A stretch of DNA of 64,000 nt from Pseudomonadota bacterium. Its GTDB lineage: Bacteria > Desulfobacterota > Desulfobacteria > Desulfobacterales > RPRI01. Shown in pieces: positions 14,875 to 32,547 of this stretch. Position numbers and translations under genes: made by a program. The DNA lies in contig JBDRRF010000103.1 of the NCBI GenBank assembly GCA_043825875.1, forward strand, positions 32,001 to 96,000, in the 5' to 3' direction. A model generated the notes under the pieces. It was not told the origin of the DNA. It was given only the letters and a program-made list of their open reading frames with translations, and did no database searches. Positions within the stretch are counted from its first letter, which is position 1, and each line of letters begins with the position of its first letter.

Positions 14875-14962
14875 GACGCACTCACCATCGTTTACACCAT
14901 AAAAATGATTATAGAATAATATCTTCTGAAAACAGATGAGTCTTTAATCGAAGAGGATGACC

Positions 14963-16051
14963 TTACGTCTGTCGATGGATATTTGACAGAAGCATAGTGT
15001 TGAAGTACGCTTGAAGGGTATCCCTGAATACATCGTCCATCATGATGCGCTGCTTGGTCAAACGCCCGGGCCCTTCAGGAAGAATACACACCAGATCGCT
15101 TCCGATATTTTTCTTGTCCTTCGAAAGAAATCGAATGTAAGTCTCCATGTCAAAATGGCCCCAGTCATAATCGGGGAAATTTCTCATTAGTAGAGGATGA
15201 ACCCAGTCAAACATCCGACGGTCCATGATTCCCTGCTGCAACGACAGATAATTCGCTATATCCATGCCAACGGTAACGGCTTGTCCGTGCTTGATAGCAT
15301 AATCCGTTAGCGACTCCAATGCATGACCGAACGTATGGCCGTAATTGAATTTATTTCGCTCACCTCGATCAAACTCATCACTTTCAATCACCGACTTCTT
15401 GATCTTTAGGCTTTCCTGGATGTGTTTGATAAGGCAGTTCCGGTTTCTGATTACCAGTTCGTAATCAGAAAGCAGCTCATCAAAAAGAGGACTCGCAGAA
15501 TAAAGATAATAGTGCAGTATCTCGCCAATGCCCGATTTAATATCATCGACGGCAAGTGACTTAAGAAAAGTTGTATCGATAAAAATATCAGCCGGGGGAT
15601 AAAAATTACCGACGATGTTCTTTTTATCGCCAAGGTTTATGGACGTCTTGCCTCCAATACAACTATCGGCCTGCGACAGAAGCGTTGTCGGGAAAAAGGT
15701 CCAGTCCACACCTCTGTATAGGATCGATGCCGTAAAAGCCGTGATATCCTGGATGACCCCGCCGCCAATGGCGATGAGACGGTCATTTCTTCGAAATTTT
15801 GCTTCAACAAGCGTCTCTATGATCTCCTGACACTTGTTGATAGTCTTGTTTCGCTCGTTAGCCTTGATGACAAGAATGCGGTCTTGTGGCACGACAGAGC
15901 TAATTCGGGTGCCATAGATCTCAAGTATCAAAGAATCAATGATAAAAAAAGCGCCCTGGTCGGCGTATTCCTGCAGAAGAATAACAAAGTCTTCAACAAA
16001 TAAAACCCTATAGTCTTTTATCCGAGATTTGATCAAGATATCATCATGCAT
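14963..16051 (-). CDS. AroB/3-dehydroquinate-synthase-related sugar-phosphate cyclase
   Basis: GGGVIQD, PTTLLSQADSCIGGKT, KN, NYGHTFGHALE, HGQAV, DKK; likely start ATG 16051. Confidence 0.85.
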   Translation of the reverse strand: MHDDILIKSRIKDYRVLFVEDFVILLQEYADQGAFFIIDSLILEIYGTRISSVVPQDRILVIKANERNKTINKCQEIIETLVEAKFRRNDRLIAIGGGVIQDITAFTASILYRGVDWTFFPTTLLSQADSCIGGKTSINLGDKKNIVGNFYPPADIFIDTTFLKSLAVDDIKSGIGEILHYYLYSASPLFDELLSDYELVIRNRNCLIKHIQESLKIKKSVIESDEFDRGERNKFNYGHTFGHALESLTDYAIKHGQAVTVGMDIANYLSLQQGIMDRRMFDWVHPLLMRNFPDYDWGHFDMETYIRFLSKDKKNIGSDLVCILPEGPGRLTKQRIMMDDVFRDTLQAYFNTMLLSNIHRQT

Positions 16052-16793
16052 TGACAACCCCCCCGTCAACGATAATGTTCTGTCCTGTCATATAGGTATT
16101 GAGGTCACTTACTATAAAAAGGACTACTCGTGAGATCTCATCGGGCGAGGCAAGACGTCCCAAAGGAACTTTCAATGCCATCTCCTGCATCCCTTTCTCG
16201 CCAAGAATACGCCGTGTGAGGTCTGTGGAGACAAACCCGGGGGAAACTGTGTTTACAAGAATATTGTACTTCGCTAGATCCAAAGCTGTTGCGGCAGTAA
16301 GTCCTCTAACTCCAAACTTCGTGACAGAGTATGCCGCCCGTTTCTCTTTACTGATGACGCCAAAAATGGAACCAATGTTAACAATACGACCGTAACTATG
16401 TTTTTTCATGACCCGGCTGACTGCGCGTGTCACCAGAAACGGAGCATCGAGGTTGACGCGAAGAACGTCCAGCCAATCTGTTTCTTGTATTTCATCGATG
16501 GGGTTGATCCGGTTGATACCGGCATTATTGATACAAATATCAATACGATCATAGACTTCAATTTCTCGGAAAAATTTTTTTACGCTCTCAGCGTTCATGA
16601 AATCAACGGCATGCCAGTGGCGGGGCGATTTCCGACGGCGTCCAGCTTGGTTCAGTTTAGCAATCTCCTCTGGGTTGGTCCCGGTCAGGATTAATTCGGC
16701 ACCTAGCCTTCCCATATCATCGGCAATTTGTTTACCGATGCCCCGTGTCGCCCCGGTGACAAGAGCTATTCGTCCTTTAAAACTTATTTGCAT
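16044..16793 (-). CDS. Classical SDR oxidoreductase (FabG-like)
   Basis: TGATRGIG, NNAGI, YSVTK, VSPG, GQNIIVDGG. Confidence 0.88.
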   Translation of the reverse strand: MQISFKGRIALVTGATRGIGKQIADDMGRLGAELILTGTNPEEIAKLNQAGRRRKSPRHWHAVDFMNAESVKKFFREIEVYDRIDICINNAGINRINPIDEIQETDWLDVLRVNLDAPFLVTRAVSRVMKKHSYGRIVNIGSIFGVISKEKRAAYSVTKFGVRGLTAATALDLAKYNILVNTVSPGFVSTDLTRRILGEKGMQEMALKVPLGRLASPDEISRVVLFIVSDLNTYMTGQNIIVDGGVVNA

Positions 16794-16805
16794 GATATTA
16801 ATTTC

Positions 16806-17717
16806 TCATTTCTGCAAGACCTTCAACAAATTACTGACAGCCTCATTTTCCATGTTTTGCCGACATTCGGCAGTATAAGAACCGATGTGAGGCGTAAGGA
16901 CAACATTTTCATAACTGCAAAGAAGTCCTTCGTAAGGTTCTTTTTCAAAGGTATCGAGCCACGCCCCAGCGACAATCCCTTTATCGAGGGCATTTATGAG
17001 GGCTTTTTCCGATATGATGCTTCCCCTTGCGGCATTAAGAAGCAGTGTGCCGCTCTTCATAAGTGAGAAGGCTGCTGCATCGAAAAGACATTCGTCGCCG
17101 CTGGTGTGGATGGTAATGATATCGGCCTGTGAAAGCGCTTCTTCCATCGGCAATAGTGGACAAGGTAAGGTAAGCGATTTAACCAGGAAAGGATCAACAG
17201 CAATTAGTTGCGCCCGGAAGGGTGCCAGCAATTCCGCCACGCGCCGCCCGATGCGGCCAAAGCCGATAATGGCAATGGTCTTGCCTTCGATCTGCCCCCC
17301 TATTTTTCTTACCCATTTCCGATCATGAAGGGCTTGATGTGATTGCGGAAGCCAACGGAGCAGGGTGACAAGCGCACCCACCGTCAACTCAGCTACAGCG
17401 CTAGTGGGACCATCAGGCGTATTGAAAACCGCTATATTCAGTTCTTTTGCCGCTTCAATATCCACATTGTTCATGCCCGCACCAACCCTGGAAATACATT
17501 TCAAATGTGACTGTGAAAGCACATCGCGATCCAGCGGTTCCAACCCGGCCAAAATGCCTACAACATCTTCTTTCAGGAGCGTGTGCAATTCTTCCCTAGT
17601 CATTTTTCTTTTGAAGCGGTTGTCTATAACAGTGAAACCAGCCGCTAAAAGCCTATCCAAAGGTTTTTTGTCTGATTCGGCAAAGGATGATGGGCCGATG
17701 AGAATCTTTGATGTCAT
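16806..17717 (-). CDS. D-2-hydroxyacid dehydrogenase (phosphoglycerate-dehydrogenase-like, no ACT domain)
   Basis: SRVGAGMNNVD, VAEL, GFGRIG, NAARG, LDTFEKEP, TPHIGS. Confidence 0.88.
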   Translation of the reverse strand: MTSKILIGPSSFAESDKKPLDRLLAAGFTVIDNRFKRKMTREELHTLLKEDVVGILAGLEPLDRDVLSQSHLKCISRVGAGMNNVDIEAAKELNIAVFNTPDGPTSAVAELTVGALVTLLRWLPQSHQALHDRKWVRKIGGQIEGKTIAIIGFGRIGRRVAELLAPFRAQLIAVDPFLVKSLTLPCPLLPMEEALSQADIITIHTSGDECLFDAAAFSLMKSGTLLLNAARGSIISEKALINALDKGIVAGAWLDTFEKEPYEGLLCSYENVVLTPHIGSYTAECRQNMENEAVSNLLKVLQK

Positions 17718-17746
17718 TTCTGGTAACGCTCCATATTATCCGATAT

Positions 17747-18358
17747 TTATTTCAGCTTTAACTGAAACCAATGGGCCAGAATGTGGTTAAGAACGAGATG
17801 AGCATCCTCCACCGGACCATATTCTCCAGATTCCGATTTCACATGAACAACAACGTCAGAAATTTCCTTTAATTTGCCGCCCGTAAACCCGACAAAACCT
17901 ATGACGCATCCGCCTTGCTTCTTTACCCATTCCGCTGCTAAAACAACGTTGGGAGAATTACCGCTTGCGGAGATAGCTAAGAACTTATCTCCTTGGCGAT
18001 AGTGGATCTTCAGTTGATTCAAGAAAACATACTCATACCCAACATCATTGGCGATTGCCGTCAACACTGATGTGTTGTCGTTCAAGGCAAAAACCCGGAA
18101 AGGTTTTTTCGTACCGGTCTTCTTAATCACATCGAAGCCGAGATCATTGGCCATACTTGTTGCCGTGGTGGCGGATCCGCCATTACCGGCAATAAAGATT
18201 GTGTTCCCGTTCAGCTGCGCCTCTTCAAATGTTGCCACCAAAGAATCGATAGCTTTTGCGTCTATGGCGTCCAGGACTTGCTTTAAATAATTAAAATATC
18301 CTTTGGCAAATTCTCCCGGGCTTATTGATTGATGGGCTAACTGATCGACATGGTTCAT
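17747..18358 (-). CDS. SIS-domain sugar-phosphate isomerase (GmhA-like)
   Basis: AGNGGSA, TAIANDVGY, ISASGNSPNV, VEDAHL. Confidence 0.85.
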   Translation of the reverse strand: MNHVDQLAHQSISPGEFAKGYFNYLKQVLDAIDAKAIDSLVATFEEAQLNGNTIFIAGNGGSATTATSMANDLGFDVIKKTGTKKPFRVFALNDNTSVLTAIANDVGYEYVFLNQLKIHYRQGDKFLAISASGNSPNVVLAAEWVKKQGGCVIGFVGFTGGKLKEISDVVVHVKSESGEYGPVEDAHLVLNHILAHWFQLKLK

Positions 18359-18381
18359 TCTGTGTTTATCTCCTGACTTTT

Positions 18382-19410
18382 TTATATTTTTATATTAAAG
18401 GCTTCTTGCCACGACTGATCGGCACAATAAATCCGATAAACCATTTCCATAACCTTCAGGGCATCTGAGCTGTTGCCGTTATCGACACTTTTATTCTGAA
18501 TGATGACATCTGCAAATTCATTAATCTCATCCCGCCACGAGTTGTCTTCTAAATACAAATTGGTTATTTCGTGAAAAGAACCTTTATCAGATCCATTATT
18601 CCTCGGAACGATTTTTAATTTTTCCTCGCCATAACTTTTCGAGCCGGATAAAATCCCAGTCAACTCAATCAAGGCCTCCCGCAACGTTATCTCCAATCTG
18701 AATTTATGTTGCCACTGCGTCGCCGTTGAATGGATCATGGCCACACAACCATTATTACTTCTCATGATCGCATAGGCATTGTCTTCCACATCATGCCGCC
18801 AATAATCGTTGGAAACAAAACTCTTGATCTCTTCGAAATCCCCGGCAAAGTAGCGTATCATATCCAGCATATGAATGCCCTGGTCAAGCAGGATACCGCC
18901 GCCGGCATATTTTCTTTCGGAACGCCAACCGGAATCGAAGGGAATGATGCTGCTTTTACCATAAATTCCCCGAATATTGATAATCTCTCCATATTGCTTT
19001 GAATCGATAATCTTTTTTGCTTCTGCCACAGAGGCATGGTACCTGTGATTAAAACCATATTTAAGTTTCAATCCCGCGTTTTTAACCTCTACATTGATTA
19101 CGTCTTTGATATCCTGGACACTGCGCCCCGGCGGTTTTTCACAAAAGACATGCAAGCCCTTCTCCAAACCGTCGATGGTGGCTTCTGCAGCAAGATAATT
19201 GGGCAGGCTCACGAAGAGGACATCAAGATTCTGTTCAAAAAGTTTGTGGTATTTATCAAAACAAGACACTCCATCCGGTAGAACTCCATCACCTGCAAAA
19301 CTCACATCACTCACGGCAACCGTGGTTAAATATGGATTTGCGTCAATGAAGGCCTTTCGCCTCTTGCCAACCACACCGTAACCGGCTATTCCTACCTTTA
19401 ATTTTTCCAT
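18382..19410 (-). CDS. Gfo/Idh/MocA oxidoreductase
   Basis: GIAGYGVVG, CEKPPG, GFNHRY, GGGILLDQGIHMLD. Confidence 0.9.
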   Translation of the reverse strand: MEKLKVGIAGYGVVGKRRKAFIDANPYLTTVAVSDVSFAGDGVLPDGVSCFDKYHKLFEQNLDVLFVSLPNYLAAEATIDGLEKGLHVFCEKPPGRSVQDIKDVINVEVKNAGLKLKYGFNHRYHASVAEAKKIIDSKQYGEIINIRGIYGKSSIIPFDSGWRSERKYAGGGILLDQGIHMLDMIRYFAGDFEEIKSFVSNDYWRHDVEDNAYAIMRSNNGCVAMIHSTATQWQHKFRLEITLREALIELTGILSGSKSYGEEKLKIVPRNNGSDKGSFHEITNLYLEDNSWRDEINEFADVIIQNKSVDNGNSSDALKVMEMVYRIYCADQSWQEAFNIKI

Positions 19411-19414
19411 TTTT

Positions 19415-20398
19415 TTAATTTTTCTGCGCTATGACTCTCATGTGCGAGCTGAAATTATGTCTACCTATCCAGGACTGGAGATCTTTCTTAGCCTGAGCTG
19501 AGCCGTATTTGGAGACCGTGCTGAAAAAACGGCCGGGGTCAAGCGATTCCTGACGATAACCACTCTCAACGATATCCCAATCCAACTGTCCCGGTGTTGA
19601 GACTTCGATCAAGGTAAATCCCATTTTTTCAAGCATCAGGCGAATGGATTGGGTATTGAAAAAATTGAGGTGATGGGGCGGCATCACGCTTTTTGATCTT
19701 TCCCATAACAGTTGAATGTCAAATCCTAATCCATTCAATGTGGTCAGATACAAATAACCGCCCACATTGAGAAACTGCGAGACTTTCCTGACAAAGGCGG
19801 AAGGATCGTGGAGATGTTCGAATAACTCAAAGGCCGTCAACAAATCGAATTTATGACAATTAGGATCGATATTTTCCATTGTTGATTCTATGACGGCTAA
19901 ACCTCTGTCTCTGCAAATTTTTGCCATATCAATCGATGGCTCTATCGCTATAATATTTGAATCAGGCCAAATTTTTTTCAATTCCTCCGGAAAGATGCCG
20001 AAGCCTGCGCCAATATCACCAATGATTCCTGCTTGTAATTGAGGAAATTTCTCAGTGATGTATTGCGCCCGTGGCTTGAAGATTTTTTCCCGGCGGGCCT
20101 CGGCCATCGGGAGGAAGAATTCCTCAACCCAGAATTTTGTGGATAAAGAATCAGTGTAAATCTGCATTAAGTTTTCGTACGTCGGCCTTGGATTGACAAA
20201 GAGAGTATCACATTTTGAGCACTGGACGTAATGAAATCCCGATTTGTCAAATTGCGCCACATTGTGATCGCACCCGCAGGCAGGGCAGCAAATGGTCTGA
20301 AATGTTGATTTATCCCGAAAGACAACCTCAGCGTCGATTTCTACCAATTTGAGATATCGATTAAAGACATCCCTTTTTCTTATTTCATCTTCTTTCAT
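19415..20398 (-). CDS. Class I SAM methyltransferase with N-terminal Cys cluster
   Basis: CPAC...CSKC, DIGAGFG, FELFEHL, PPHHLNFF. Confidence 0.85.
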   Translation of the reverse strand: MKEDEIRKRDVFNRYLKLVEIDAEVVFRDKSTFQTICCPACGCDHNVAQFDKSGFHYVQCSKCDTLFVNPRPTYENLMQIYTDSLSTKFWVEEFFLPMAEARREKIFKPRAQYITEKFPQLQAGIIGDIGAGFGIFPEELKKIWPDSNIIAIEPSIDMAKICRDRGLAVIESTMENIDPNCHKFDLLTAFELFEHLHDPSAFVRKVSQFLNVGGYLYLTTLNGLGFDIQLLWERSKSVMPPHHLNFFNTQSIRLMLEKMGFTLIEVSTPGQLDWDIVESGYRQESLDPGRFFSTVSKYGSAQAKKDLQSWIGRHNFSSHMRVIAQKN

Positions 20399-20405
20399 TC
20401 TTGCT

Positions 20406-21179
20406 CTATACCTTTAGGTATTTTGCAACAAGAGGATCTCTTTTCAGTTGCTCTTCTACAAATGTAATATCTCCAGGAACATCAACCCCGTATGATTTGA
20501 ATTTGGTCTTAACCATTTTAATTCTTCTGCCATGTTCCAGGAGTCTGTTCATATCAACAGATTCGATTATTTCTAATGGCGTCGGTGATAAATTGATGTA
20601 TTCTAAAAGTAGGTTTTTTTCGAAAAGAATGATGCCGAGCTGCTTCCACATAGGTAAAACACCACTATAATTTCGTTTTGACGGTATAGGTTCTCTGGAA
20701 AAATACAAAACAAAATCATTCAAATCCAAAACGACCTTGATGATATTGTAGTTGTTGAATTCTTCTTCCGTTTCAATTTTGTTGATCAGGTTTGTAATCT
20801 TTAATGTCGGATCATTGATCACCGGGTTAATAAGATCGTTAATCATGCCCGGCATCAGCATGGGCTCATCGCCCTGAATCATTGCGACATAGTCAACCGC
20901 AACGTTCTCTTTCTGCTCAATATTAACGATGGCCTCTGCCGCCCGATCCGAGGCGCGCTGGTGCGAATCGGCCGTCATGACCGCCTTGCCGCCAATAAAG
21001 TTTATATAGTTAAATATTTCCTCATCACAAGTGGCCACCCACACATCGTCAAGGTGGGAGCACATTTTTGCGCGAAAATAAACATGACCAATCATAGGCA
21101 TACCAAGGATAGGGGCCATAGGCTTATTGGGAAAACGGGATGCTGCTAAGCGTGCTGGTATAATAGCTGTAATATTCAT
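20406..21179 (-). CDS. kdsB: KdsB-like 3-deoxy-2-ulosonate cytidylyltransferase
   Basis: IIPARLAASRFPNKP, QGDEP, LYFSREPIP, LEIIESVDMNR, GVDVPGD; start ATG 21179. Confidence 0.85.
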   Translation of the reverse strand: MNITAIIPARLAASRFPNKPMAPILGMPMIGHVYFRAKMCSHLDDVWVATCDEEIFNYINFIGGKAVMTADSHQRASDRAAEAIVNIEQKENVAVDYVAMIQGDEPMLMPGMINDLINPVINDPTLKITNLINKIETEEEFNNYNIIKVVLDLNDFVLYFSREPIPSKRNYSGVLPMWKQLGIILFEKNLLLEYINLSPTPLEIIESVDMNRLLEHGRRIKMVKTKFKSYGVDVPGDITFVEEQLKRDPLVAKYLKV

Positions 21180-21516
21180 AACACTTCTTCGTTTATGTTT
21201 CTGAGCCAATATAAGAATCTGACCCATTGCCACTGCAGTTTAGTTGGCCGGTTTTAATCGATATATCCATATTTCCCTTGCTGTGACAATTACTTGACCT
21301 CTACAAGGGAGAAGACCTACAAAATTTTGTCTCATACCAATTAGTTTTCAAACACTAAATAATATTTCAACTGATTTATAATAATAACTGGAAGATAAGC
21401 ATCATAATAGTTTAATATGTGAAAGCGTATTGGTATCATGTTGTTGAAGGGGAAATCATATGTGCCTTTTTGCATACCACGAAGTCAAAAAGTTACACAA
21501 AATATCCAAAAAAAAT

Positions 21517-22125
21517 TTATGGAAACTTAAAATAATGTTTAGAAAAATTTATTAATTTTCTACTGCCAATCACTCTGGCTGGATTACTTGTAACAATTGA
21601 ATATGGAGGGAAAACACCTGAAACAAATGAGCCTGCAGCTATAATCGAACCATAACCAATTTTTGTGCCGGTTAGTATAATGCAGTTCGCCCCAATCCAA
21701 ACATCACCCTCTATAACTATACTTGCTTCCTCTTTATCTTCACTAAATACCTTCTTTGCAAGATGACCTTGGTGGATGAAGGGTGTAGTTGAATCAGAAT
21801 AGTCATGGTTTGAAGCTCTTATGAAAACCCCGCTCGCTATGTGCACGTCGGCCCCTATTATTATGCCAAAGCTATCATTAGGATCAAGAATAGAGTTACG
21901 TCCAATCGAAAACGAGTCACCAATTTTCAGTTTAGCATCATTGTAGATAAAAGTATTTGGGGAAATATGCGGATTCTTGCCGAGATTACCGCTTAATTTC
22001 ATTCTGAAATAGGATTCTCTTAATTGTCGGCCAATTCTCGTTTCAGGGTAAAAGATTACGAATACTTCAATCAGCCCAACTATTTCATCCTTTATAGATC
22101 TTAGAATACGTCTAATCATCATCAA
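21517..22125 (-). CDS. Hexapeptide-repeat (LbH) acyltransferase
   Basis: ASNHDY, IEGDVWIGANCIILTG, IAAGSFV, NPARVI. Confidence 0.88.
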   Translation of the reverse strand: MMMIRRILRSIKDEIVGLIEVFVIFYPETRIGRQLRESYFRMKLSGNLGKNPHISPNTFIYNDAKLKIGDSFSIGRNSILDPNDSFGIIIGADVHIASGVFIRASNHDYSDSTTPFIHQGHLAKKVFSEDKEEASIVIEGDVWIGANCIILTGTKIGYGSIIAAGSFVSGVFPPYSIVTSNPARVIGSRKLINFSKHYFKFP

Positions 22126-23734
22126 TGACCACCATGTCTTTAATGTTTCGCAATTGTTCTGATATGTCAGACGAATGACTAAAGCAGCTTAGATTATCTT
22201 CTCTGGTGATCTTGTCAATTATATGCTGATAGTAAGATATTTGTTCCCAAGAAAATGATCTGCTTCTGAGATAAATTAGATACCAAAGCCCAAGATCCGA
22301 ATCAACATATAGACAATTATTGATTTTATCATGCATATATAGTTTCATTCTTGATGCTTCATCACTTGACATCGTCTCATGAATCCATTTAAATCCTTCA
22401 CCTTCAAGTCCATATTTTCCCCTCTGCAAATGAACAGGTGAATTATGGAGATAATAAAATTCCTTGAGCGAATAATAATCGAGACCGGATCGATTTATGA
22501 AGTTTATCGTGTTATTAATTGTATTTTCTGTTTCCATTGGAAATCCTACTATAAACGATGCAAAAGTAGTTATTCCGTGCTTTTTTATGGACTCAATGCC
22601 CTTTTCATAGTTGCCAATATTGGCTTTTTTGTTCATCCGCATAAGGATATCATTATCGCCCGATTCTAATCCAAGGTATACTCCATCACATCCAGAATCC
22701 GCCATTTCAGCAGCAATCTCGTCGGTGATAAACTGTGCTCTAAGGAAAGCATACCATTTAAAATTATGATTATTTAGCCTTTCGAGCAATGTTGAGAAAA
22801 ATCTTCTTGAAGCATTCAACGTGTCATCTATGAAAACCAAATTTTTTATACCAGCGTCCTCTAAAGTAATAAGTGTTTTTTCGATAAAATCATTTTCTGA
22901 GCACTGAAATTGACTAGCCATCGAAGGGTAACTACAAAAAGCACACTTAAAAGGACACCCTATAGAAACACGTAATTGTATGATATTATTATGGAAAATA
23001 GAAATTGACCTTCTAAATACTTCGGGATCAAACCAGGGATTTTGAGCGACATCATGGCATCTGTTATTATGAAAGACACCTTGGTCATCCAAGTAAACAA
23101 GATTCTTGATACTCCCGAACTCTGATTGCTTATTTATTAAGGTATTATAAATTTGTACAATTGCGGTATCGGCATCATTTCCATGCAGGATGAATCTAAT
23201 ACCATATTTTTTCATGGATTTTTCAAAAGACGCGAATCCCTTCATCCGGTTCTGGTTATGAACAAAAGCCCCTCCGAGAATAAATATTACATATGGAAAG
23301 TCTTTTAATATTTGTTTTGTTATTCTCTTAATTTCAGACCATTGTAAAATGAAAGTGGTCGATATGCCTACTATCTGGATATCAGTGTCCGATAAGAGAT
23401 TCTTTAGCACATCATATTCAGCATCAAAATCGTTTATTATGTTACATTCCACGCCCTCCATAAGCAGATGCTGGATCGATAATATCCCATTCAGTGACGG
23501 CATATTCCAGATGGAAAAAAATTTACGCCTTTCAGAATAGGATGCCTCGCTGAAATATTTTCCAAAGTAAATACGGTTGAGTACATCCAAATGAGTTCTA
23601 AAGCCGTTTTCATAATATACCATCCTAAGCTGGACAAGATGCCTGTATAGCTCAATTCGATTTATATCGAGATCTTTATAACCCTCTTGTACGTTCTCAG
23701 AAGATGAAATTATTATAAATGGTGATTTTTTCAT
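22112..23734 (-). CDS. Cobalamin-dependent radical SAM enzyme (PhpK/CysS/BzaD-like clade)
   Basis: VGISTTF and LGGAF B12-domain-like segments, CPFKCAFC, FIDDTLN, WYAFLRAQ, GVYLGLESG, FIVGFPMET, GLEGEGFKWIHETM. Confidence 0.75.
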   Translation of the reverse strand: MKKSPFIIISSSENVQEGYKDLDINRIELYRHLVQLRMVYYENGFRTHLDVLNRIYFGKYFSEASYSERRKFFSIWNMPSLNGILSIQHLLMEGVECNIINDFDAEYDVLKNLLSDTDIQIVGISTTFILQWSEIKRITKQILKDFPYVIFILGGAFVHNQNRMKGFASFEKSMKKYGIRFILHGNDADTAIVQIYNTLINKQSEFGSIKNLVYLDDQGVFHNNRCHDVAQNPWFDPEVFRRSISIFHNNIIQLRVSIGCPFKCAFCSYPSMASQFQCSENDFIEKTLITLEDAGIKNLVFIDDTLNASRRFFSTLLERLNNHNFKWYAFLRAQFITDEIAAEMADSGCDGVYLGLESGDNDILMRMNKKANIGNYEKGIESIKKHGITTFASFIVGFPMETENTINNTINFINRSGLDYYSLKEFYYLHNSPVHLQRGKYGLEGEGFKWIHETMSSDEASRMKLYMHDKINNCLYVDSDLGLWYLIYLRSRSFSWEQISYYQHIIDKITREDNLSCFSHSSDISEQLRNIKDMVVIDDD

Positions 23735-23976
23735 TTGGGGTTAATTTTTTTCATCAGATAATCTACAAACTGCCCAACATTCTGGATTTCCATTACATCC
23801 TCAGTTTTGAATGCAACATTAAACTTTCGCTCAATTGCAAGAAGCAACTGAATATGCATGAGTGAATCCCATTCTTCAATATCGTTAGCTGTCATCTCAT
23901 CGAATATTTCTATGGAGTTATCATCGAATACTTCTCTAAATATTGATTGTAAATCACGCTTGACACTGTCCCGCAT
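23731..23976 (-). CDS. Acyl carrier protein
   Basis: 81 aa, acidic, WDSLMHIQL phosphopantetheine Ser motif. Confidence 0.9.
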   Translation of the reverse strand: MRDSVKRDLQSIFREVFDDNSIEIFDEMTANDIEEWDSLMHIQLLLAIERKFNVAFKTEDVMEIQNVGQFVDYLMKKINPK

Positions 23977-25873
23977 AGTGGTTCTCCCTTGTATTATTAT
24001 TTTTTTTCATATCTTCTATAACATGTTTCTTATAAACAATATCCCCCATTTTGATTGAATAAAAAATGCCACCCCCTGATAACTTGCTAAGTTCAGATGG
24101 AATATCTTTTAACGGCTTGAATCCAAGGGAGGGTAGAAATTCATTGACAACTTTGTTTTTCTCTGTTGGAATAAACTCTCCTACGATGCAAGATATTTCA
24201 TTCCATGTTTTTACTTTTTCAGTGATTTTATTGAACATAGCATGCTCAACACCCTTGTTAAAGGCTCTGCAACTCAAGACCCAAGTATCGATAAATGCCA
24301 TGTTCTTTAACTTCCTTAAAATTAAGCAAGTTATAATTCCAAAATTGCTAAATTTGTCCTTGAGTTCACCTAAAAGAAGAATAAATTGTGATGCATCATT
24401 CATTATTTTTTGAATATCACCTTTGCTATATCTTTTTGTTCTCAGATTGAATTGGTTTGTTTTGTTAATAAGTTGGACAAATCTTGCCAAGCTCTGTTCA
24501 GAAGGCTCATTGATCCTGATCTCCATTTCAAGTGATTTTAGAAAAGAATTATAATCTGTGTGTTCCTTCCTGATCTCTTCACGCTGGTAGTTTGTTACAT
24601 ATGTTTCAGTCCGCTCAATATCCTCCTTTGTAAGTTGAATCCAATCAAAATAAGCACCCCTATCAAGGATTTTTGTATAATACGCTGGTTCATCATCCAC
24701 AGGGACAACAGTCACTTCTGGCAGGTATCTCTTTACAAGCTCTCTTTCTGCTGGATTGTCATCAAAGAAAACTAAAGAATCAATCCCAATATTTAACTGC
24801 TTGGCGATGCTTCTTATGTTACTGACCTTGTCATCCCAGTTGGCCACAAAACAACAAATATCATCGAGTTTGAGAATCATCTGTTCATGTTTGAGAAAAG
24901 GAATCTTAGCCATATCCTCGTTATTTTTACTGCAAACCGCGAGCATTACACCCCTTTCTCTGAGCTTTTTTATATATTTCTGAAATGAGAGATATGCCTC
25001 ACCAACCGCATTATTAGGGTCTAAATTTATTCCCTCAATACCATCATCACCTATAACACCGCCCCATAGGGTGTTATCCAAATCTAAAATAAGGCATTTG
25101 TTGACCTTGCCTGACGCTGAAGCAACAAGCGATGAAAACAAATTGGCCAAATGAGGAATCGCATCGAAACTAAAACCTTGCTTACTAAGAAAGTAATTCT
25201 TATCATCAAACCATTTGTCCTTACCATAGAGAGCTGAATGATAATCCATATCTATCAGATTAATATGCATAGGTTTATTTGCTATAAGTTGGTAGTTGAA
25301 AAGCTTGATGCAAGATGTCTGAGTGAAGATATAATTAGATTCAAGATTACCTATCGGCATTTCAGCGGGTATTGCATACAGCGTCTGAAATAAAGTTGAT
25401 ATTTTTGATCCTTTAAGTCTATCCCAAAGTCGAATCCAATCGGATATTTTATTTTCCGACCACACATCAACACTTTTTTTTGAGGAAAATAAAGGAGGAT
25501 ATTCCTTTATGTCTCGATAATCCGTCAAAATAAAAAGTATATCAGGATCAAATTTATATAAACCTGAATCGGGATTTAATATTTCATATTCAGTGTTATT
25601 GAAGATCCCCTCGTAAAATTCTGGCTGTATTGCTTTATTCAAGAGAAATAACTTAAATACATATTGAAAATGCTGAGTAGAATACGAGGCCAAAATGGCG
25701 ATCTTTTTATAAACCAACTTGTTTCTGTGTTTTGAGATATACAAATCTTCAATCTTTGAGAATTTCTTATAAAGTGTTAGGAGATCAGAGATATCTCTAT
25801 TTGAGAAAAAATCTCTTTTATCAAATTCTCTTTCAAAATAAGCCATTCTTTCATTTACATCATTCATGTTCAT
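23954..25873 (-). CDS. FkbH-like HAD-IIIC glyceryl-transferase/phosphatase
   Basis: LILDLDNTLWGGVIGDDG, CSKN, FFDDNPAER, KTNQFNL, LSCR; ATG 25873 overlaps the MaoC stop. Confidence 0.9.
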   Translation of the reverse strand: MNMNDVNERMAYFEREFDKRDFFSNRDISDLLTLYKKFSKIEDLYISKHRNKLVYKKIAILASYSTQHFQYVFKLFLLNKAIQPEFYEGIFNNTEYEILNPDSGLYKFDPDILFILTDYRDIKEYPPLFSSKKSVDVWSENKISDWIRLWDRLKGSKISTLFQTLYAIPAEMPIGNLESNYIFTQTSCIKLFNYQLIANKPMHINLIDMDYHSALYGKDKWFDDKNYFLSKQGFSFDAIPHLANLFSSLVASASGKVNKCLILDLDNTLWGGVIGDDGIEGINLDPNNAVGEAYLSFQKYIKKLRERGVMLAVCSKNNEDMAKIPFLKHEQMILKLDDICCFVANWDDKVSNIRSIAKQLNIGIDSLVFFDDNPAERELVKRYLPEVTVVPVDDEPAYYTKILDRGAYFDWIQLTKEDIERTETYVTNYQREEIRKEHTDYNSFLKSLEMEIRINEPSEQSLARFVQLINKTNQFNLRTKRYSKGDIQKIMNDASQFILLLGELKDKFSNFGIITCLILRKLKNMAFIDTWVLSCRAFNKGVEHAMFNKITEKVKTWNEISCIVGEFIPTEKNKVVNEFLPSLGFKPLKDIPSELSKLSGGGIFYSIKMGDIVYKKHVIEDMKKNNNTRENHYAGQCQA

Positions 25874-26292
25874 ATTTTTATCTCTACCATCTCTTTTACT
25901 TGGCATTTCCCCTGTGCGATTGTTACTTTTTTCCCATTAGTAAAAGTCAACTTCAGTTCGGCAACTTTTAGTGCAATCGAGATATTTTCCATGATCCCTA
26001 GCAACTGGATTTTATCACCTGGATGAAAGGGATGCCTATAAAGGATGTTTTGCGAAATAAGCATTACTTTATATTTTCTCATCTCAACGCCAACCAATGA
26101 AGATATCATTAAACCGAGAAGGTTGCCATAACATACTATATTTCTGAATCCATATAATTTTGAATAGTTAGGGTCGATATGAATTGGATTATCGTCTAAA
26201 GATATTTCTCTAAACTTATTCATAATATCTATTGTTATTACCATATTCCAATGAAACTCTTGTCCTATTTTAAGCATCTCAATCATATACAA
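25870..26292 (-). CDS. MaoC/PhaJ hot-dog dehydratase
   Basis: FREISLDDNPIHID (DxNPIH), YGNL, PGD. Confidence 0.85.
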   Translation of the reverse strand: MYMIEMLKIGQEFHWNMVITIDIMNKFREISLDDNPIHIDPNYSKLYGFRNIVCYGNLLGLMISSLVGVEMRKYKVMLISQNILYRHPFHPGDKIQLLGIMENISIALKVAELKLTFTNGKKVTIAQGKCQVKEMVEIKI

Positions 26293-26336
26293 TTATTCTC
26301 ATATCCATATAAATAACTACTAATACGCGCCAATAA

Positions 26337-26750
26337 TTATGTGAGGATAGCTGCTAAACCCATCCTACAACTACATCAAGTATTCGAATATCGATGCTAT
26401 AAGCAATAAATCGGTATCCTTCTTCTCTTCGCTGTTGAAGCTGCATTACCTCCGGCTCAACAATATGGATGCACGTAGCTTTACCCGATGCACCCCCAAC
26501 TGATTCTTATAGTGGCCATTACCTTTTGCATAAAGCGAATGCGATTAATAATCCGTGATGCCTAATGATCTGGAGAGCTCGTAAGAACCGACAATAAACC
26601 CGTCGACACTATCAACGACAGACTTTCAGCAAGATTATCAACAGGCTTGGATATGTTCAATCTGAACACAGTGGCTTCATGACTTAGCCAATCCTTATAT
26701 GCTTAGAATGAAATCAACAAGTCCAACAGGTTCTCTAACAGCTTTTTCAT
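26337..26750 (-). pseudogene. Frameshifted 3' remnant of a second HpcH/HpaI aldolase gene
   Basis: Colinear DNA similarity to about 27860-28320, e.g. tggcttcatgact-agccaatccttatatgctt, gcttggatatgttcaatctg, gtagctttacccga; pieces translate to AYKDWLSHEA, VQIEHIQA, YSIDIRILDV. Confidence 0.85.
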
Positions 26751-26845
26751 ACAATCATTCTTACCATATAGATTCATCTGCCGTTCATCCTTTTCCAAGT
26801 CCGCCGACGTATGACACGGTCAAAACATCAGCTACTTTCTTAGCA

Positions 26846-27805
26846 CTAGAAATTCCCTATTTTTTCATCACACCCACTGGCCCAACTATCTATGGTAAAT
26901 AGATTAGAGATTTTTCTAAATATTATTTCAATTCTTCCTTTACCCTTAAAATTACGAAGAACAAATTTTTCATTATTTTTCAAATATTGTTTAATATGTA
27001 CATGCATCTCCTTGGACAATATACCAATTTTAGAAGATAAATTTAAAAGGACTTCAGCTAAATCGAAATATTCATATGCAAGATATACTGTAACCGCTCG
27101 TAATATCTTATCTTCATTAACATTCTTATCAGAGCAGATATTTTCTGGGGTTTTGAAATATAATGCATCTCCAAAAATAATTTGGCCTTTTTGTCCTGGA
27201 CCATAATGATGTGTATTGTTTCTTCTCCAATAATACCTTTTTAAATCGATAAGTTCGAAACCACGACTTGTTATGAATTGATCGATTTCGGGAAACAGGG
27301 GTTGATCCTTGTAGATGGGCAAAAATTCAACCTCAACCTCCAGGCCGATCACATTTTCAAGCGTTTTTACAGCACCTTCCAAAATTGATAATTCATATCC
27401 TTGTGTATCAATTTTGATGAAATCAACTTCAAGCAAGCCGGCTTTACGTAATTGGCTATCCATTGTATCAGTTTTCATTGTTATGGTATTTACTATGTCA
27501 TGCCTTTCAGCCTCTGGATATTTGCTAAGTAATTCAAAATTTGGCATAAAAATTGACGAGACTTGTTGTTTTCGGCAGAGATTGAATTTTAGGTCTTTGG
27601 GAAAATCGGATAAAGCACTGTTTAATACTATATAATTATCGCCTACACTTTGTTTCAACCTATCATATTCCCTGGGATCTGGCTCAAAGAGCACCGCTTT
27701 AAAATTAGAACCAGCTATCTTTGGCCATCTTGAATGGAGTCCGCCACTGGCTCCTACATCAATAACATAAATAGTTTTGTTTTTTAAAATGCCTTTATTA
27801 CTCAT
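26846..27805 (-). CDS. FkbM-family methyltransferase
   Basis: IDVGASGG, FEPD, FIKIDTQGYELSILEGA, EVEF, GDALY. Confidence 0.88.
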   Translation of the reverse strand: MSNKGILKNKTIYVIDVGASGGLHSRWPKIAGSNFKAVLFEPDPREYDRLKQSVGDNYIVLNSALSDFPKDLKFNLCRKQQVSSIFMPNFELLSKYPEAERHDIVNTITMKTDTMDSQLRKAGLLEVDFIKIDTQGYELSILEGAVKTLENVIGLEVEVEFLPIYKDQPLFPEIDQFITSRGFELIDLKRYYWRRNNTHHYGPGQKGQIIFGDALYFKTPENICSDKNVNEDKILRAVTVYLAYEYFDLAEVLLNLSSKIGILSKEMHVHIKQYLKNNEKFVLRNFKGKGRIEIIFRKISNLFTIDSWASGCDEKIGNF

Positions 27806-27859: not shown

Positions 27860-28630
27860 CTATGAATGAATCGACATTATTGCAGTTCTACAGGTAACAT
27901 CCAGCATTCGAATATCGACGCTGTAAGCGATAAACTGGTAATTTTCCTTGATGCGCTGTTGAAGCTGAGTTACGTCCGGCTCAATAATATGAATGCCTGT
28001 AGCTTTACCCGAAGTGAGTCCCACGCTTTTTATCGTGGCCATTGTCTTTTGCATAAGCGGATGCTCAAAATCACCGGGGACGCCCAACGATCCTGAAAGA
28101 TCGTAAGGTCCCACAATAAAACCATCTACGCCCTCAACAGACAGGATTGCGACAAGATTTTCTACAGCTTGGATATGTTCAATCTGCACGATTACAATGG
28201 CTTCATGACTAAGCCAATCCTTATATGCTTCGAAGGTGTTACCGTAACCCTGTGCCCGTGCCAGCCCCACCCCTCTTTTTCCTTGTGGCGGGTAACGAAC
28301 AGCTGCAACGGCCCGCTCTGCCTCGGCGGCAGAATTCACCATCGGCACGATTATACCATATGCGCCCGCATCCATAACTCGTTTGATTTGAACAGAATCA
28401 TTGGTCGAAAGACGGACTAAAGGTACAGCTCCACACAGATCGATTACCCTGATCAATTCCTCGGCCTCCCGAATTGTGATAACACTGTGCTCCAAATCGA
28501 CGGCCAGCCAATCAAATCCTGCCTTCGCCATGATTTCCGCAATCGCCGGATGTGCAAGCGTGATCCAGGAACCAATACTCAATCCATTATTATGCAGTTT
28601 CTCTTTAAGTGTAGCAATTCTCATTTTCAA
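27860..28630 (-). CDS. HpcH/HpaI class II pyruvate-dependent aldolase
   Basis: GFDWLAVDLEH, PLVR, VQIEH, VGPYDLSGSLG. Confidence 0.9.
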   Translation of the reverse strand: MKMRIATLKEKLHNNGLSIGSWITLAHPAIAEIMAKAGFDWLAVDLEHSVITIREAEELIRVIDLCGAVPLVRLSTNDSVQIKRVMDAGAYGIIVPMVNSAAEAERAVAAVRYPPQGKRGVGLARAQGYGNTFEAYKDWLSHEAIVIVQIEHIQAVENLVAILSVEGVDGFIVGPYDLSGSLGVPGDFEHPLMQKTMATIKSVGLTSGKATGIHIIEPDVTQLQQRIKENYQFIAYSVDIRMLDVTCRTAIMSIHS

Positions 28631-28705: not shown

Positions 28706-30520
28706 CTAATTATATTGACAAGGAATTAACGCCCTGAGCAAAATATTCCAGCCCAAAACGCTTTCCAGTCTGGGGATAGGTTTGGGGTTGAGATTTTTAT
28801 AAATCACGAGCCCGTTTTCCTTATAAAGCAGTTTATTATTTTTGTCACTTTCCACTTTGATCATATATCCCTGCCATGGGGGGAGGTTCGGATCAATGTA
28901 AACCACTTCCTTAGTCTGAATGAAATAATATTCAACGCCTTCCGGGTGATATCCCAGGTACCATGCCTTTTGCCTGTTTGTTACATATGCCTGCATGGCA
29001 GCATCAATCCTATAAGCAACCGAAGCGTCTTTAGGTATATATTCCCTCATTTTTTCTAAGACATGCTCATATTTAGCGTTAACAGGCGAGGATCTAATAA
29101 ACACAATTTTCTTATTTGTAATACCAGCCCATGGATAGTTATTTGAAAACCATAAAGTTGTGGATATTATGCCTGCAGCCATTAGAATTAACATCAAATA
29201 TTTATTATTATCGGCGACTGCTTTTTTGTCCGAGATTGTTCCCGGACTAAACATGCAGGTAAGTACCATAAAAGCGCTTAAATACACCGGAACAACCATG
29301 TTTGCATTTCTATGGGAAGCAATATCATAACTTCGGAATAAACCCATTACGGCACCAACAGCAGCAAATACAAGCAAGCCAATGAGAGGCCAATTCCAGC
29401 ACTTATCTCTTTTTATTCCTAAAAGAGGAACAAAGCCGACTGTCAATAGCAGGAGAAAGATATATACTGCATGGTATAGAGATGCTCGGATAAATGATGT
29501 GAAATCAAGCTTCAAAAAAAGTTGGATCATAGTACCGGTAGGTTGGCTCGACAGATCCCAAATACCTCGCAGGCTTTCCCTGATAATGGCCTGATCCCAC
29601 AACATAACCAAAAGACCGATCACTAAAGTTATAATGCCCTGCTTGGGAGCTCTAAAGAAAAGAGCTATTATTACACCAAGCGCAATTACGGAATATGTAT
29701 AAGGCATATTGATAATTGCTAGTAGGAACACAAAAACATAAAACAACATCCAGCGTCGTGAAAATAATGAGGCAAATACATAAGGATAAACGGCGTATGA
29801 TATTAGGTCAAATTGACCGCTCATCAAAATGGATCTTTCCACCCATGGTAATAGACAAAATCCCATTGCCGCCATAAGCGCCATTATTTTTGACCCCTTG
29901 AGTGCGCGCACCGCTAAATATATTCCAAATGATCCGAAAGTAATAACCACTATGACAACGGCAAACACATGCATTGGGGGATTAGGATAAAACCAATAGA
30001 GGGGAGTTAGTAAAAGGCTTGGCAGTATTTGCGGCACCGTAGAAAATGCCGAAGCGTAAAAGAAAGGATTAGCATGGAAATAGAGAGCGCCGTTATATTT
30101 AACCGTATTTTCAGGTCCGATTCCAGCGCATAGATTATGGAGTACCTGAGCAAAATAGGCCCCGTTCCCATGGTTGTACTCATACAGATAGGGATTCATA
30201 AATATATCAATCCCAAACCAACCGATGACCAGTATGATAAACATACCTAAAATTAATTTATAATTTGATTCAATAAACATTCGCCACGGATGCCGGTTAT
30301 CAAAGATAAACCGCCACCTCAATAGTACATAGTCCTTACATAAATAGAGGCTCCAGAAAAGCATAATAAAGGTAGTCGTTGCCCTGATGAATCTTGTTCT
30401 GTCTATGGTAATCCGGGGAAGAATTAGAAAAAATAGAATCAGCGAAACAATAAGTAGTAAAATTGATTTGTTCAGGATATTTCTTTTTGTCAATATTTTT
30501 TGCATACGATCAATGCCCAT
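28706..30520 (-). CDS. Polytopic membrane protein, DUF2079/GT-C-like
   Basis: More than 10 TM segments, early periplasmic loop (GNGAYFAQVLHN), soluble C-terminal domain (IPKDASVA). Confidence 0.55.
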   Translation of the reverse strand: MGIDRMQKILTKRNILNKSILLLIVSLILFFLILPRITIDRTRFIRATTTFIMLFWSLYLCKDYVLLRWRFIFDNRHPWRMFIESNYKLILGMFIILVIGWFGIDIFMNPYLYEYNHGNGAYFAQVLHNLCAGIGPENTVKYNGALYFHANPFFYASAFSTVPQILPSLLLTPLYWFYPNPPMHVFAVVIVVITFGSFGIYLAVRALKGSKIMALMAAMGFCLLPWVERSILMSGQFDLISYAVYPYVFASLFSRRWMLFYVFVFLLAIINMPYTYSVIALGVIIALFFRAPKQGIITLVIGLLVMLWDQAIIRESLRGIWDLSSQPTGTMIQLFLKLDFTSFIRASLYHAVYIFLLLLTVGFVPLLGIKRDKCWNWPLIGLLVFAAVGAVMGLFRSYDIASHRNANMVVPVYLSAFMVLTCMFSPGTISDKKAVADNNKYLMLILMAAGIISTTLWFSNNYPWAGITNKKIVFIRSSPVNAKYEHVLEKMREYIPKDASVAYRIDAAMQAYVTNRQKAWYLGYHPEGVEYYFIQTKEVVYIDPNLPPWQGYMIKVESDKNNKLLYKENGLVIYKNLNPKPIPRLESVLGWNILLRALIPCQYN

Positions 30521-31203: not shown

Positions 31204-32547
31204 TCATTTGATTAAAAAACTTTTTATAAAACCAAAACTATTTCTAATGGCTGAGCTAAAATCTGCTCTCGTCAAATTGTAAAGTATAATAGACGGACGT
31301 AAATAAAATTTTAAAAGTGCCTTACGTTGCCAGTTCACCAGATCCTTTGGTTCTAAATCATTGACTCTTATAACAGCATTCCCCCATCGTCTATAATCTG
31401 CCCAATTTGAAGACAATAAACTCAATCCACCAACTCCAGACTTTGCATATTCATAATATTCTGTTCCCGGAAACGGTGTTCCTATATTAATATAGGCTTG
31501 TTTACATTTTAATTTTTTAATAAAATTAATTGTGTTTTTAATAGTTTCTTCCGTTTCTTCAGGCAGACCGAAAATAACAGAGAGCCTTGTTTCTAGACCA
31601 ACCTCGTCGGCTATTTTATAGGCCTTCTTTATTTGGTCAAGAGTTGTTCCCTTTTTTGCCGCATCTAAAATATGTTGATTCCCGGACTCTACACCAAAAG
31701 ATATTCTGTTAAGCCCTGCCTGCTTTAATTTTTTAAGCAAATCAAGCGTTACCACATTTACGCGGGTATATCCTTCAAATGTAATATTCAGTTTTTCCTT
31801 GATTATCGAATCGCAGAGGTTAATTGTCCTTTCATGATTAAGGCCGAGGGTATCATCTAAAAAGCTGAAGTGCCGGATATTATATTTGTCAATGACCATC
31901 TTAAGTTCTTCGATAATTCCAGGGACGCCACGATAACGAACATGGTTTCCGAAGATTACCTTCTGCGAGCAGAATATACATTTAAAGGGACAGCCCCTCG
32001 ATGTCATAATCGTCGCCATGGGTTGAATGCCTTTGCCGGGGACGGACCATACATACTTTTGATTATCCAGGAGATCCCGATTCGGAAAACTTATGGAATC
32101 AAGATCCTTAATCAATGGCTCCTGCGCCATTATCCCTCTGGCCGGAGATTTCAAAAATTTATTAAAAGCAACTTCGCCTTCACCTGGAATTACAGTGTCA
32201 ACAAAGGGGCTGGATATGACGGATTCAGGCACTGCGGAACAATGTGGTCCACCTGCAACCGTCCAGATATATGCACTATGTTTTTTTACTATTTGGAACA
32301 GATCAAAAGCCTGATTAACAAGAGGCGTCGTAAATGTCACACCGATAATGTCAGGCTTGAAGGATTTCAAGGTATCTAAGAGATTAGGGTTCAATTCAAG
32401 ATCAATAATTTTCGTTTCGTGATCGCCCTCAATATTTGCAGCGAGTGAGGCAAGCCCCAAAGGAGGATATAGAACTCCGATTTTTGCCGCCGGAGAGAAA
32501 TTTCCATAAACACCGGTAAAGGATGGATTAACCAACAAGATTTTCAT
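31204..32547 (-). CDS. B12-binding radical SAM methyltransferase-like enzyme
   Basis: PPLGLASLAA, GGPH, GEGE, SRGCPFKCIFC, GVESG, PFPGT. Confidence 0.9.
   Translation of the reverse strand: MKILLVNPSFTGVYGNFSPAAKIGVLYPPLGLASLAANIEGDHETKIIDLELNPNLLDTLKSFKPDIIGVTFTTPLVNQAFDLFQIVKKHSAYIWTVAGGPHCSAVPESVISSPFVDTVIPGEGEVAFNKFLKSPARGIMAQEPLIKDLDSISFPNRDLLDNQKYVWSVPGKGIQPMATIMTSRGCPFKCIFCSQKVIFGNHVRYRGVPGIIEELKMVIDKYNIRHFSFLDDTLGLNHERTINLCDSIIKEKLNITFEGYTRVNVVTLDLLKKLKQAGLNRISFGVESGNQHILDAAKKGTTLDQIKKAYKIADEVGLETRLSVIFGLPEETEETIKNTINFIKKLKCKQAYINIGTPFPGTEYYEYAKSGVGGLSLLSSNWADYRRWGNAVIRVNDLEPKDLVNWQRKALLKFYLRPSIILYNLTRADFSSAIRNSFGFIKSFLIK

Follow-up and report, generated by a model that had tools for sequence, protein, structure and literature searches.

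FkbH proteins take 1,3-bisphosphoglycerate and load a glyceryl unit onto an acyl carrier protein (ACP), as in the loading modules of bryostatin and tartrolon. In such modules of polyketide synthases (PKS) the loader stands next to a dehydratase (DH): together with a ketoreductase (KR) the set DH-KR-FkbH-ACP forms the route to D-lactyl-ACP (PMC7901079), while OocJ carries a form with a methyltransferase (MT), DH-MT-FkbH-ACP (PMC4552970). Here we describe a related set of genes in a surface-glycan locus of a Pseudomonadota bacterium (assembly GCA_043825875.1, contig JBDRRF010000103.1, positions 32,001 to 96,000; this whole stretch of 64,000 nucleotides is called the window below). It resembles the PKS modules in combining FkbH, an ACP and a MaoC dehydratase, but the genes are free-standing and lie in a cell-envelope locus, a cobalamin (B12)-dependent radical S-adenosylmethionine (SAM) enzyme is found in place of the ketoreductase, and the finished unit would go to a transferase rather than to a ketosynthase. 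We predict that this cassette represents a new form of carrier-based glycan acylation, with an uncharacterised clade of B12 radical SAM enzymes whose substrate can now be narrowly predicted.

Glycerate-derived acyl groups on surface glycans are known from the di-O-methylglyceryl pseudaminic acid system of Campylobacter jejuni 11168 (cj1295), which likewise has a gene with an FkbH domain, cj1302, in its locus; there the group is O-methylated, and the available portions of the two reports describe no step by MaoC and a radical SAM enzyme (PMC7099621, PMC3068675). A glyceroyl group has also been reported on pseudaminic acid in Tannerella (PMC5378307). We take Cj1295 to be a DUF4910 protein, and neither DUF4910 nor an AAC(3)-type gene was present among the 58 window proteins scanned. 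Among B12 radical SAM enzymes, CysS and TokK have been solved with pantetheinylated substrates, going by the titles of the structure entries, and TmoD is described as methylating iteratively on a carrier (PMC9303977). According to a 2026 review, which catalogues the members characterised so far, the largest groups are unexplored (PMC12931638). Most of the superfamily is without a known substrate, and gene context would here narrow a whole clade to a three-carbon acyl unit on a named carrier. Our search, which left subscription literature and supplements largely outside, found no publication describing FkbH, MaoC and a radical SAM enzyme together; for FkbH with a membrane-bound O-acyltransferase (MBOAT) only cyanobacterial peptide work surfaced, and one further paper (PMC13122637) is, as far as its available text goes, a peptide study with no bearing on the cassette.

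A conserved cassette and its reductase-bearing relatives

The features in question, all on the minus strand, are as follows.

25870..26286 (end approximate), minus strand: stand-alone MaoC hot-dog dehydratase of about 138 aa; start codon at 26292, 26286 or 26277; PF01575, E 2.9e-7; Asp-x4-His dyad in DDNPIH
23954..25873, minus strand: FkbH glyceryl loader, long form with an FkbH_N domain; TIGR01686, 298 bits (cut-off 146.65); PF21211; DLDNT phosphatase motif; WVLSCR cysteine
23731..23976, minus strand: dedicated ACP of 81 aa; WDSL motif with Ser38; PF00550
22112..23734, minus strand: cobalamin-dependent radical SAM enzyme of 540 aa, from a clade near PhpK; TIGR04479, 340 bits (cut-off 600); PF02310, 23 bits, under its cut-off
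21517..22122, minus strand: left-handed beta-helix (LbH) hexapeptide acyltransferase of a small, distinct subfamily; PF00132
26373..26708, minus strand: remnant of the 3' part of an HpcH/HpaI aldolase gene, broken by stops and frameshifts; a scar between FkbM and MaoC
26846..27805, minus strand: FkbM-family methyltransferase; TIGR01444, 78 bits (cut-off 37.7); within the low-GC block

An earlier note on this DNA had read MaoC, FkbH, ACP, radical SAM and LbH as an overlapping chain with an FkbM gene just upstream. All six open reading frames of this block and their family assignments were confirmed, as was the chain itself: ATGA couplings join MaoC to FkbH at 25870-25873 and the ACP to the radical SAM gene at 23731-23734, and overlaps of 23 and 11 nt join FkbH to the ACP and the radical SAM gene to LbH. 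The FkbM gene does lie upstream, but it is uncoupled from the chain by a gap of 553 nt that holds the HpcH remnant (77% identity over 341 nt to the intact HpcH gene at 27860-28630).

Relatives of the radical SAM enzyme from its own clade were drawn from pattern scans of genome and metagenome collections, which gave at least five and at least three clade loci among 80 listed matches each, the rest being mostly distant radical SAM enzymes, and from genome samples, where clade-level scores occurred in 3/130, 1/281, 7/251, 2/251, 1/5, 0/231 and 3/241 genomes (sample centres included). The clade enzyme was found in none of 60 relatives of the host, 400 genomes of the host phylum or 231 genomes of another phylum. 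No clade member occurred among 76 loci of viral contigs (best E 3e-19), and plasmids gave no match at 1e-30. Fused forms of 1006-2870 aa included none with MaoC or FkbH and one distant relative fused to a non-ribosomal peptide synthetase (NRPS), which is weak evidence. We counted 19 long loci (L011-L015, L092, L278-L286 and L353-L356), some of which are kin, three coming from one family; going by record labels they belong to Pseudomonadota, Elusimicrobiota and Myxococcota, and there are also members of the phylum to which an Omnitrophota record belongs and a single contig from a metagenome. Two others were left out as too short: L091, which starts in the ACP gene and shows ACP-radical SAM, and L094, whose 2.5 kb end inside the radical SAM gene and have a MarR-like gene and a family 2 glycosyltransferase upstream of it, not MaoC.

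MaoC, FkbH and an ACP stand beside the clade radical SAM gene in all 19 long loci; the earlier note had named a lack of FkbH/ACP beside the enzyme in other genomes as grounds for refutation. They do so in several gene orders, although the radical SAM proteins are only 35-42% identical to that of the window (the ACP of L353 was located by tblastn). MaoC directly precedes the radical SAM gene in 16 of the 19. Among the next relatives outside the clade, by comparison, two or three of the partners were seen in 3 of 14 loci (L093, L291, L296). The functional motifs seem intact. The presumably catalytic Asp-x4-His dyad of MaoC is kept in the window and in 19/19 loci, and W36-D37-S38 is invariant in the 17 cassette ACPs that were aligned. 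The window FkbH scores over the TIGR01686 cut-off and has both the HAD motif DxDxT (as DLDNT) and the C-terminal cysteine (LSCR), whose roles we take to be those of a loader of this family. In a FastTree phylogeny, which carries long-branch warnings that include the window's row, 19 of 20 cassette FkbH proteins form one clade (support 95), nested in a clade (support 99) whose remaining members belong to cassettes of MaoC with a short-chain dehydrogenase/reductase (SDR). Judged by gene content and context, MaoC-FkbH-ACP-radical SAM is a real, conserved and mobile module, and very probably the four gene products act together on the ACP.

Loci that lack the radical SAM enzyme give an indication of what it does. 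As controls we used 20 of 24 FkbH loci without the clade enzyme (L328-L347), sampled from one alphaproteobacterial order. MaoC was present in 15 of the 20, and in all 15 an SDR was fused or adjacent to it (14 called by Pfam, that of L346 by 49% identity to the SDR half of another locus), though two of these MaoC-SDR pairs, surrounded by FabH genes at a distance of 4-5 kb from FkbH, may act on a different substrate. MaoC stands alone in the cassette loci: unlike in the lactyl route of the PKS modules, no SDR or ketoreductase lies fused or adjacent to it, either in the window or in any of the 19. At their closest, SDR-like genes lie at distances of 3.2, 4.9 and 9.1 kb and belong to other modules, the one at 3.2 kb standing beside an FAD oxidase; the nearest in the window is 9 kb off. 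With an SDR in 0/19 cassette loci against 15/15 controls, the radical SAM enzyme stands where the reductase normally stands. The simplest reading of this gene arrangement is that it takes the place of the reductase and works on the same carrier-bound intermediate. That it replaces the ketoreductase of a common cassette, and that the usual transferase is an MBOAT, had not been part of the earlier note.

The reductase-bearing form deserves mention in its own right. A cassette of MaoC, SDR (often as a fusion), FkbH and ACP, frequently with an MBOAT, is common in glycan loci (15/20 of the control loci) and could be a way of making lactyl or O-methyl-lactyl substituents of surface glycans; our literature searches found no description of it for glycans.

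The radical SAM enzyme and its carrier protein

The earlier note had suggested placing the enzyme against PhpK, CysS and TokK. It falls near PhpK, but outside that family, and is distant from the other two. PhpK/BcpD (TIGR04479) is the nearest characterised family, with similar length and domain order, and TIGR04479 is the best family over nearly the full length. The score of 340 bits is nonetheless well under the cut-off of 600, ten other clade members reach 361-386, and a true PhpK control (from L019, a locus that has a phosphoenolpyruvate (PEP)-mutase motif and a PhpG above its cut-off) reaches 728 at about 30% identity to the window enzyme. Unlike PhpK, the cassette enzyme has no phosphonate genes beside it, its partner being an ACP loaded by FkbH. 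With a profile built from 78 homologues, full-length clade members score at least 670 bits (as do all of the best 120 homologues) and the next relatives at most 423, a gap whose size is partly by construction because the profile was built from the clade itself; gene context was not used in it. A quick maximum-likelihood tree with 72 rows sets the clade on a long stem with support 100 and places the PhpK control outside it, among relatives mostly from NRPS/PKS-type loci. Thus, membership of an uncharacterised clade near but outside PhpK is well supported by profile scores and tree. The labels 'P-methyltransferase' and 'anaerobic cyclase', which automatic annotations give to clade relatives, are suggested to be wrong. 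Separately, one protein (L016:8901-10550) passes the PhpK cut-off with 667 bits yet lies amid very large open reading frames typical of NRPS/PKS clusters, so that the TIGR04479 label may over-call P-methylases.

The sequence has the hallmarks of a cobalamin-dependent radical SAM enzyme: a CxxxCxxC motif and an N-terminal B12-binding Rossmann domain with G-x-S and GG motifs. C260/C264/C267, S125, T127, G154-G155 and D303-D304 are invariant in 78/78 sequences. A structure model with a mean predicted local distance difference test (pLDDT) value of 92.7 matched TsrM, CysS, TokK and OxsB in a fold search, with template-modelling (TM) scores of about 0.5 to CysS and TokK; the search did not separate TsrM, CysS and TokK, and searches among solved structures turned up none near the PhpK branch. 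The kinship with CysS that the earlier note had leaned on is not supported. CysS and TokK share the fold class and a radical-type motif at the GGE position, but they are only 11-13% identical to the window enzyme (profile E 1e-10 and 2e-8) and cluster together in a group of their own, of which a Trp two places after the last cluster Cys is the motif, shared with ThnK (PMC9204698). That place, position 269, is Tyr in 78/78 clade sequences. Their substrates are aromatic ethers or carbapenams, whereas the cassette enzyme is proposed to act on a three-carbon acyl-ACP destined for a glycan. In TsrM, the Glu of GGE ligates the cluster and an Arg lies under the cobalt (PMC9204698). At the places of TsrM Arg69 and Glu273, mapped by motif and via the CysS alignment rather than by direct alignment, the clade has Thr127 (78/78) and Thr305 (T in 67, N in 11 of 78), which favours radical over polar chemistry.

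A carrier-tethered substrate, as postulated before, gains further support from structure prediction. For the radical SAM enzyme with the ACP, complex prediction gave a score of 0.65, whereas the highest-scoring of three controls stood at 0.00. Of 157 solved complexes 116 attained this mark, as did 2 of 215 mismatched pairs. The runs shared 93% or more of their contacts, with a partner pLDDT of at least 83. In the model, ACP residues 34-49, including Ser38, lie on N-terminal helices of the enzyme (residues 16-33) and on the loop 131-136, and interface residues are conserved (Y19 in 71/78, R26 in 76/78, L33 in 74/78). Binding of the ACP with its serine face on the enzyme is thus predicted.

Proposed pathway, transfer and alternatives

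By what is known of its family, FkbH would load glyceryl from 1,3-bisphosphoglycerate onto Ser38 of the ACP. MaoC would then remove water to give an enol and hence pyruvoyl-ACP, the intermediate that the SDR of the common cassette would reduce to lactyl. Here the radical SAM enzyme would instead bind the ACP, its 5'-deoxyadenosyl radical would abstract a hydrogen from C3, and a methyl group would be added from methylcobalamin. In the alternative order, methylation would come first (glyceryl to 2,3-dihydroxybutyryl) and dehydration would lead to the same 2-oxobutyryl-ACP. Repeated methylation could give 2-oxoisovaleryl or 3,3-dimethyl-2-oxobutyryl, and a reductase encoded elsewhere could convert the 2-oxo product into a 2-hydroxy acid. 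Finally, the acyl group would be transferred to an acceptor in the cell envelope, here by the coupled cytoplasmic LbH protein to a sugar precursor, and by an MBOAT in most other genomes. We infer such a product from gene content, co-occurrence, exclusion of the reductase and intact motifs, and PhpK, the nearest characterised relative, is a methylase. On balance, we give an even chance to the reading that glyceryl-ACP is dehydrated and C3-methylated, in either order, to a 2-oxobutyryl or further methylated acyl group that is then passed to a glycan. If so, envelope polymers of environmental bacteria would carry an acyl substituent that has yet to be described.

The transferase, as judged by gene content, is interchangeable among cassettes, with four alternatives. 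An MBOAT is present in 16 of the 19 related loci, and in the two tested its best NCBIfam match was DltB with 155-163 bits (cut-off 375). This recalls the Dlt pathway, where the carrier DltC is paired with the MBOAT DltB; unlike there, the cargo would be built by FkbH, MaoC and the radical SAM enzyme and is not D-alanine, and a profile made from the related MBOATs detected none in this genome. FabH and a GNAT protein take its place in L012, and L356 and the short L091 have a GNAT-like protein and a polysaccharide deacetylase; the contig of L286 ends at the radical SAM gene. In the window the LbH protein is probably the local transferase, in line with the earlier note. Its subfamily comprises 19 proteins at E<=2e-31, followed by a gap to 5e-20, and for 4 of the 18 other members the longest contig has the same length as that of a clade radical SAM (42-78% identical to that of the window), against 0 of 101 other LbH matches; the subfamily thus seems to travel with the cassette, by an indirect but specific link. 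Taken together, the cassettes suggest modular evolution, with one loader, a swappable tailoring enzyme (reductase or radical methylase) and four alternative transferases.

As for the acceptor, glycan genes are in view in 12 of the 19 loci and NeuB in 3, so that legionaminic acid, which had been put forward as an example, is not supported as a general acceptor. In L013, L284 and L285 the MBOAT cassette adjoins a type I PKS (with ketosynthase (KS), DH, MT and KR domains in L284), not glycan genes, and there the acceptor may be a lipid. In L356 (7001-8963) and L091 (1968-3970) the GNAT-like protein, which is without annotation, and the deacetylase follow the radical SAM gene as a pair (32% identical between the loci), in L356 directly before NeuB; the pair is a candidate for acetyl-for-acyl exchange on a nonulosonic acid.

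Several points weigh against the pathway as proposed. The controls come from a single order, and kin loci are not independent; a reductase could act in trans, this genome having many SDRs. The complex score is a measure of model confidence, and its three controls included no unrelated ACP. For the window's own sub-branch, gene context consists of the window and one short contig, the link to LbH is indirect, and the window's LbH subfamily occurs in none of the 19 loci. Seven of these have no glycan genes in view, three of them lying next to a type I PKS, so that something other than a polysaccharide may sometimes be the acceptor. In addition, none of the bacteria that carry the cassette is linked to a glycan of known structure, esters of 2-oxo acids are reactive, and a weak literature search found no glycan groups of the 2-oxoacyl type.

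The lability of a 2-oxo ester would be avoided if the methyl group were added at C2 of pyruvoyl-ACP, giving 2-hydroxyisobutyryl-ACP, a stable tertiary alcohol for which no ketoreductase is needed. This would also account for the strict exchange of SDR and radical SAM enzyme, but C2 of pyruvoyl has no abstractable hydrogen and a ketyl-type mechanism would be required, for which we know of no precedent, while the SAM-binding motifs look canonical; C2 methylation of glyceryl before dehydration would block MaoC, whose dyad is kept throughout. We regard the C2 route as quite unlikely. The wider proposal, that the glycan substituent arises by such a methyl-for-hydride swap at the carbonyl carbon or else by repeated C3 methylation to a 2-oxoacyl group bearing a tert-butyl, is unlikely too; the swap, if true, would mean a new glycan substituent made by a kind of cobalamin radical chemistry that no member of the enzyme class has been described to perform.

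An enzyme standing in place of a reductase might instead perform a redox reaction or rearrangement on the ACP-bound unit without methylation, such as a deoxygenation or a reduction that would yield lactyl, 3-hydroxypropionyl or propionyl. The class does have members that do not methylate (PMC9204698), and AprD4, a diol dehydratase, gave the best sequence match to a solved structure (E 5e-15). That match spans only residues 248-418, however, while the best family over the full length is the methylase PhpK and the motifs of the cobalamin domain are invariant, which makes this alternative improbable. Similarly improbable is that FkbH, MaoC and ACP make glyceryl or pyruvoyl and the radical SAM enzyme methylates a sugar or finished glycan precursor off the carrier. 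Sugar-methylating B12 radical SAM enzymes exist in MoeK5 and GenK (PMC9204698), and the window has two further B12 radical SAM enzymes with no tie to an ACP; the cassette enzyme, in contrast, is found with MaoC, FkbH and ACP whatever the acceptor or transferase, its predicted ACP interface lies at Ser38, and acylation in the MBOAT loci presumably takes place outside the cytoplasm.

In a route like that of CysS, FkbM would O-methylate glyceryl-ACP and the radical SAM enzyme would extend the methoxy group to ethoxy or isopropoxy. FkbM lies within the same low-GC block, L278 has an FkbM gene directly before its MBOAT, and O-methylglyceryl groups occur on Campylobacter flagellin (PMC3068675). Yet FkbM domains are visible in only 2 of the 19 loci, so FkbM does not belong to the conserved core, which has no methyltransferase, contrary to what had been supposed earlier; with the pseudogene cutting FkbM off from the chain and the low identity to CysS, we consider this route highly improbable. 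Finally, P-methylation of a phosphinate or phosphonate, which the family match and the automatic labels might suggest and which the earlier note had already doubted, can be practically dismissed given the scores far below PhpK, the separate position in the tree, and the lack of a PEP mutase over cut-off in the whole genome (a single weak match scores best as methylisocitrate lyase) and in all but one of five other carrier genomes, there on another contig, with the PEP-mutase motif detected in the PhpK control and in 0/19 related loci.

Genomic setting and neighbouring observations

The six block genes have a GC content of 0.33-0.37, compared with 0.47 for the HpcH gene upstream and 0.41-0.48 for eight genes downstream (KdsB-like to TIGR04326); the limits drawn in the earlier note thus coincide with an inserted low-GC block. 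The block splits a run of HpcH, KdsB, methyltransferase, GFO, SIS, dehydrogenase, SDR and AroB-like genes within a surface-glycan locus of about 50 kb, where genes for a legionaminic acid pathway and for two amidotransferase triads are found as well. The interrupted run itself (13003-21233 and 27860-28630) comprises an HpcH aldolase, a KdsB-like cytidylyltransferase, a SIS isomerase, a D-2-hydroxyacid dehydrogenase, an SDR, an AroB-related cyclase (TIGR04425 over cut-off) and TIGR04326. In L354 the cassette likewise sits between a KdsB-like gene and a dehydrogenase, and the HpcH/KdsB-like/SIS/AroB-like set shared by the window and L354 (7010-16221) is an unexplained sugar or cyclitol pathway.

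The two additional B12-binding radical SAM enzymes of this glycan locus (31204-32547 and 38310-39698) belong to other clades, and among the best five families shown for them none was above cut-off. In addition, two multi-pass membrane proteins with about 9 and about 10 hydrophobic segments (6378-7862 and 28706-30520) have no Pfam or NCBIfam match.

Two further groups of PhpK-like radical SAM genes were observed. One branch (L287-L291) occurs with an AAC(3)-family acyltransferase in 4/5 loci, an AMP-dependent ligase in 3/5 and DUF4910 in 2/5; some lie near NeuB, L291 also carries MaoC-SDR and FkbH, and the branch is a candidate for a second carrier-based acyl cassette. In the other (L021:9758-15160 and L022:9788-15148), the radical SAM gene is followed by a 3-hydroxyacyl dehydrogenase, an ACP, an acyl-CoA dehydrogenase, a short FkbH and a very large open reading frame. 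This is the hydroxymalonyl-ACP set, annotated as such in L021, with no O-methyltransferase among these genes, and it possibly makes a C-methylated extender unit.

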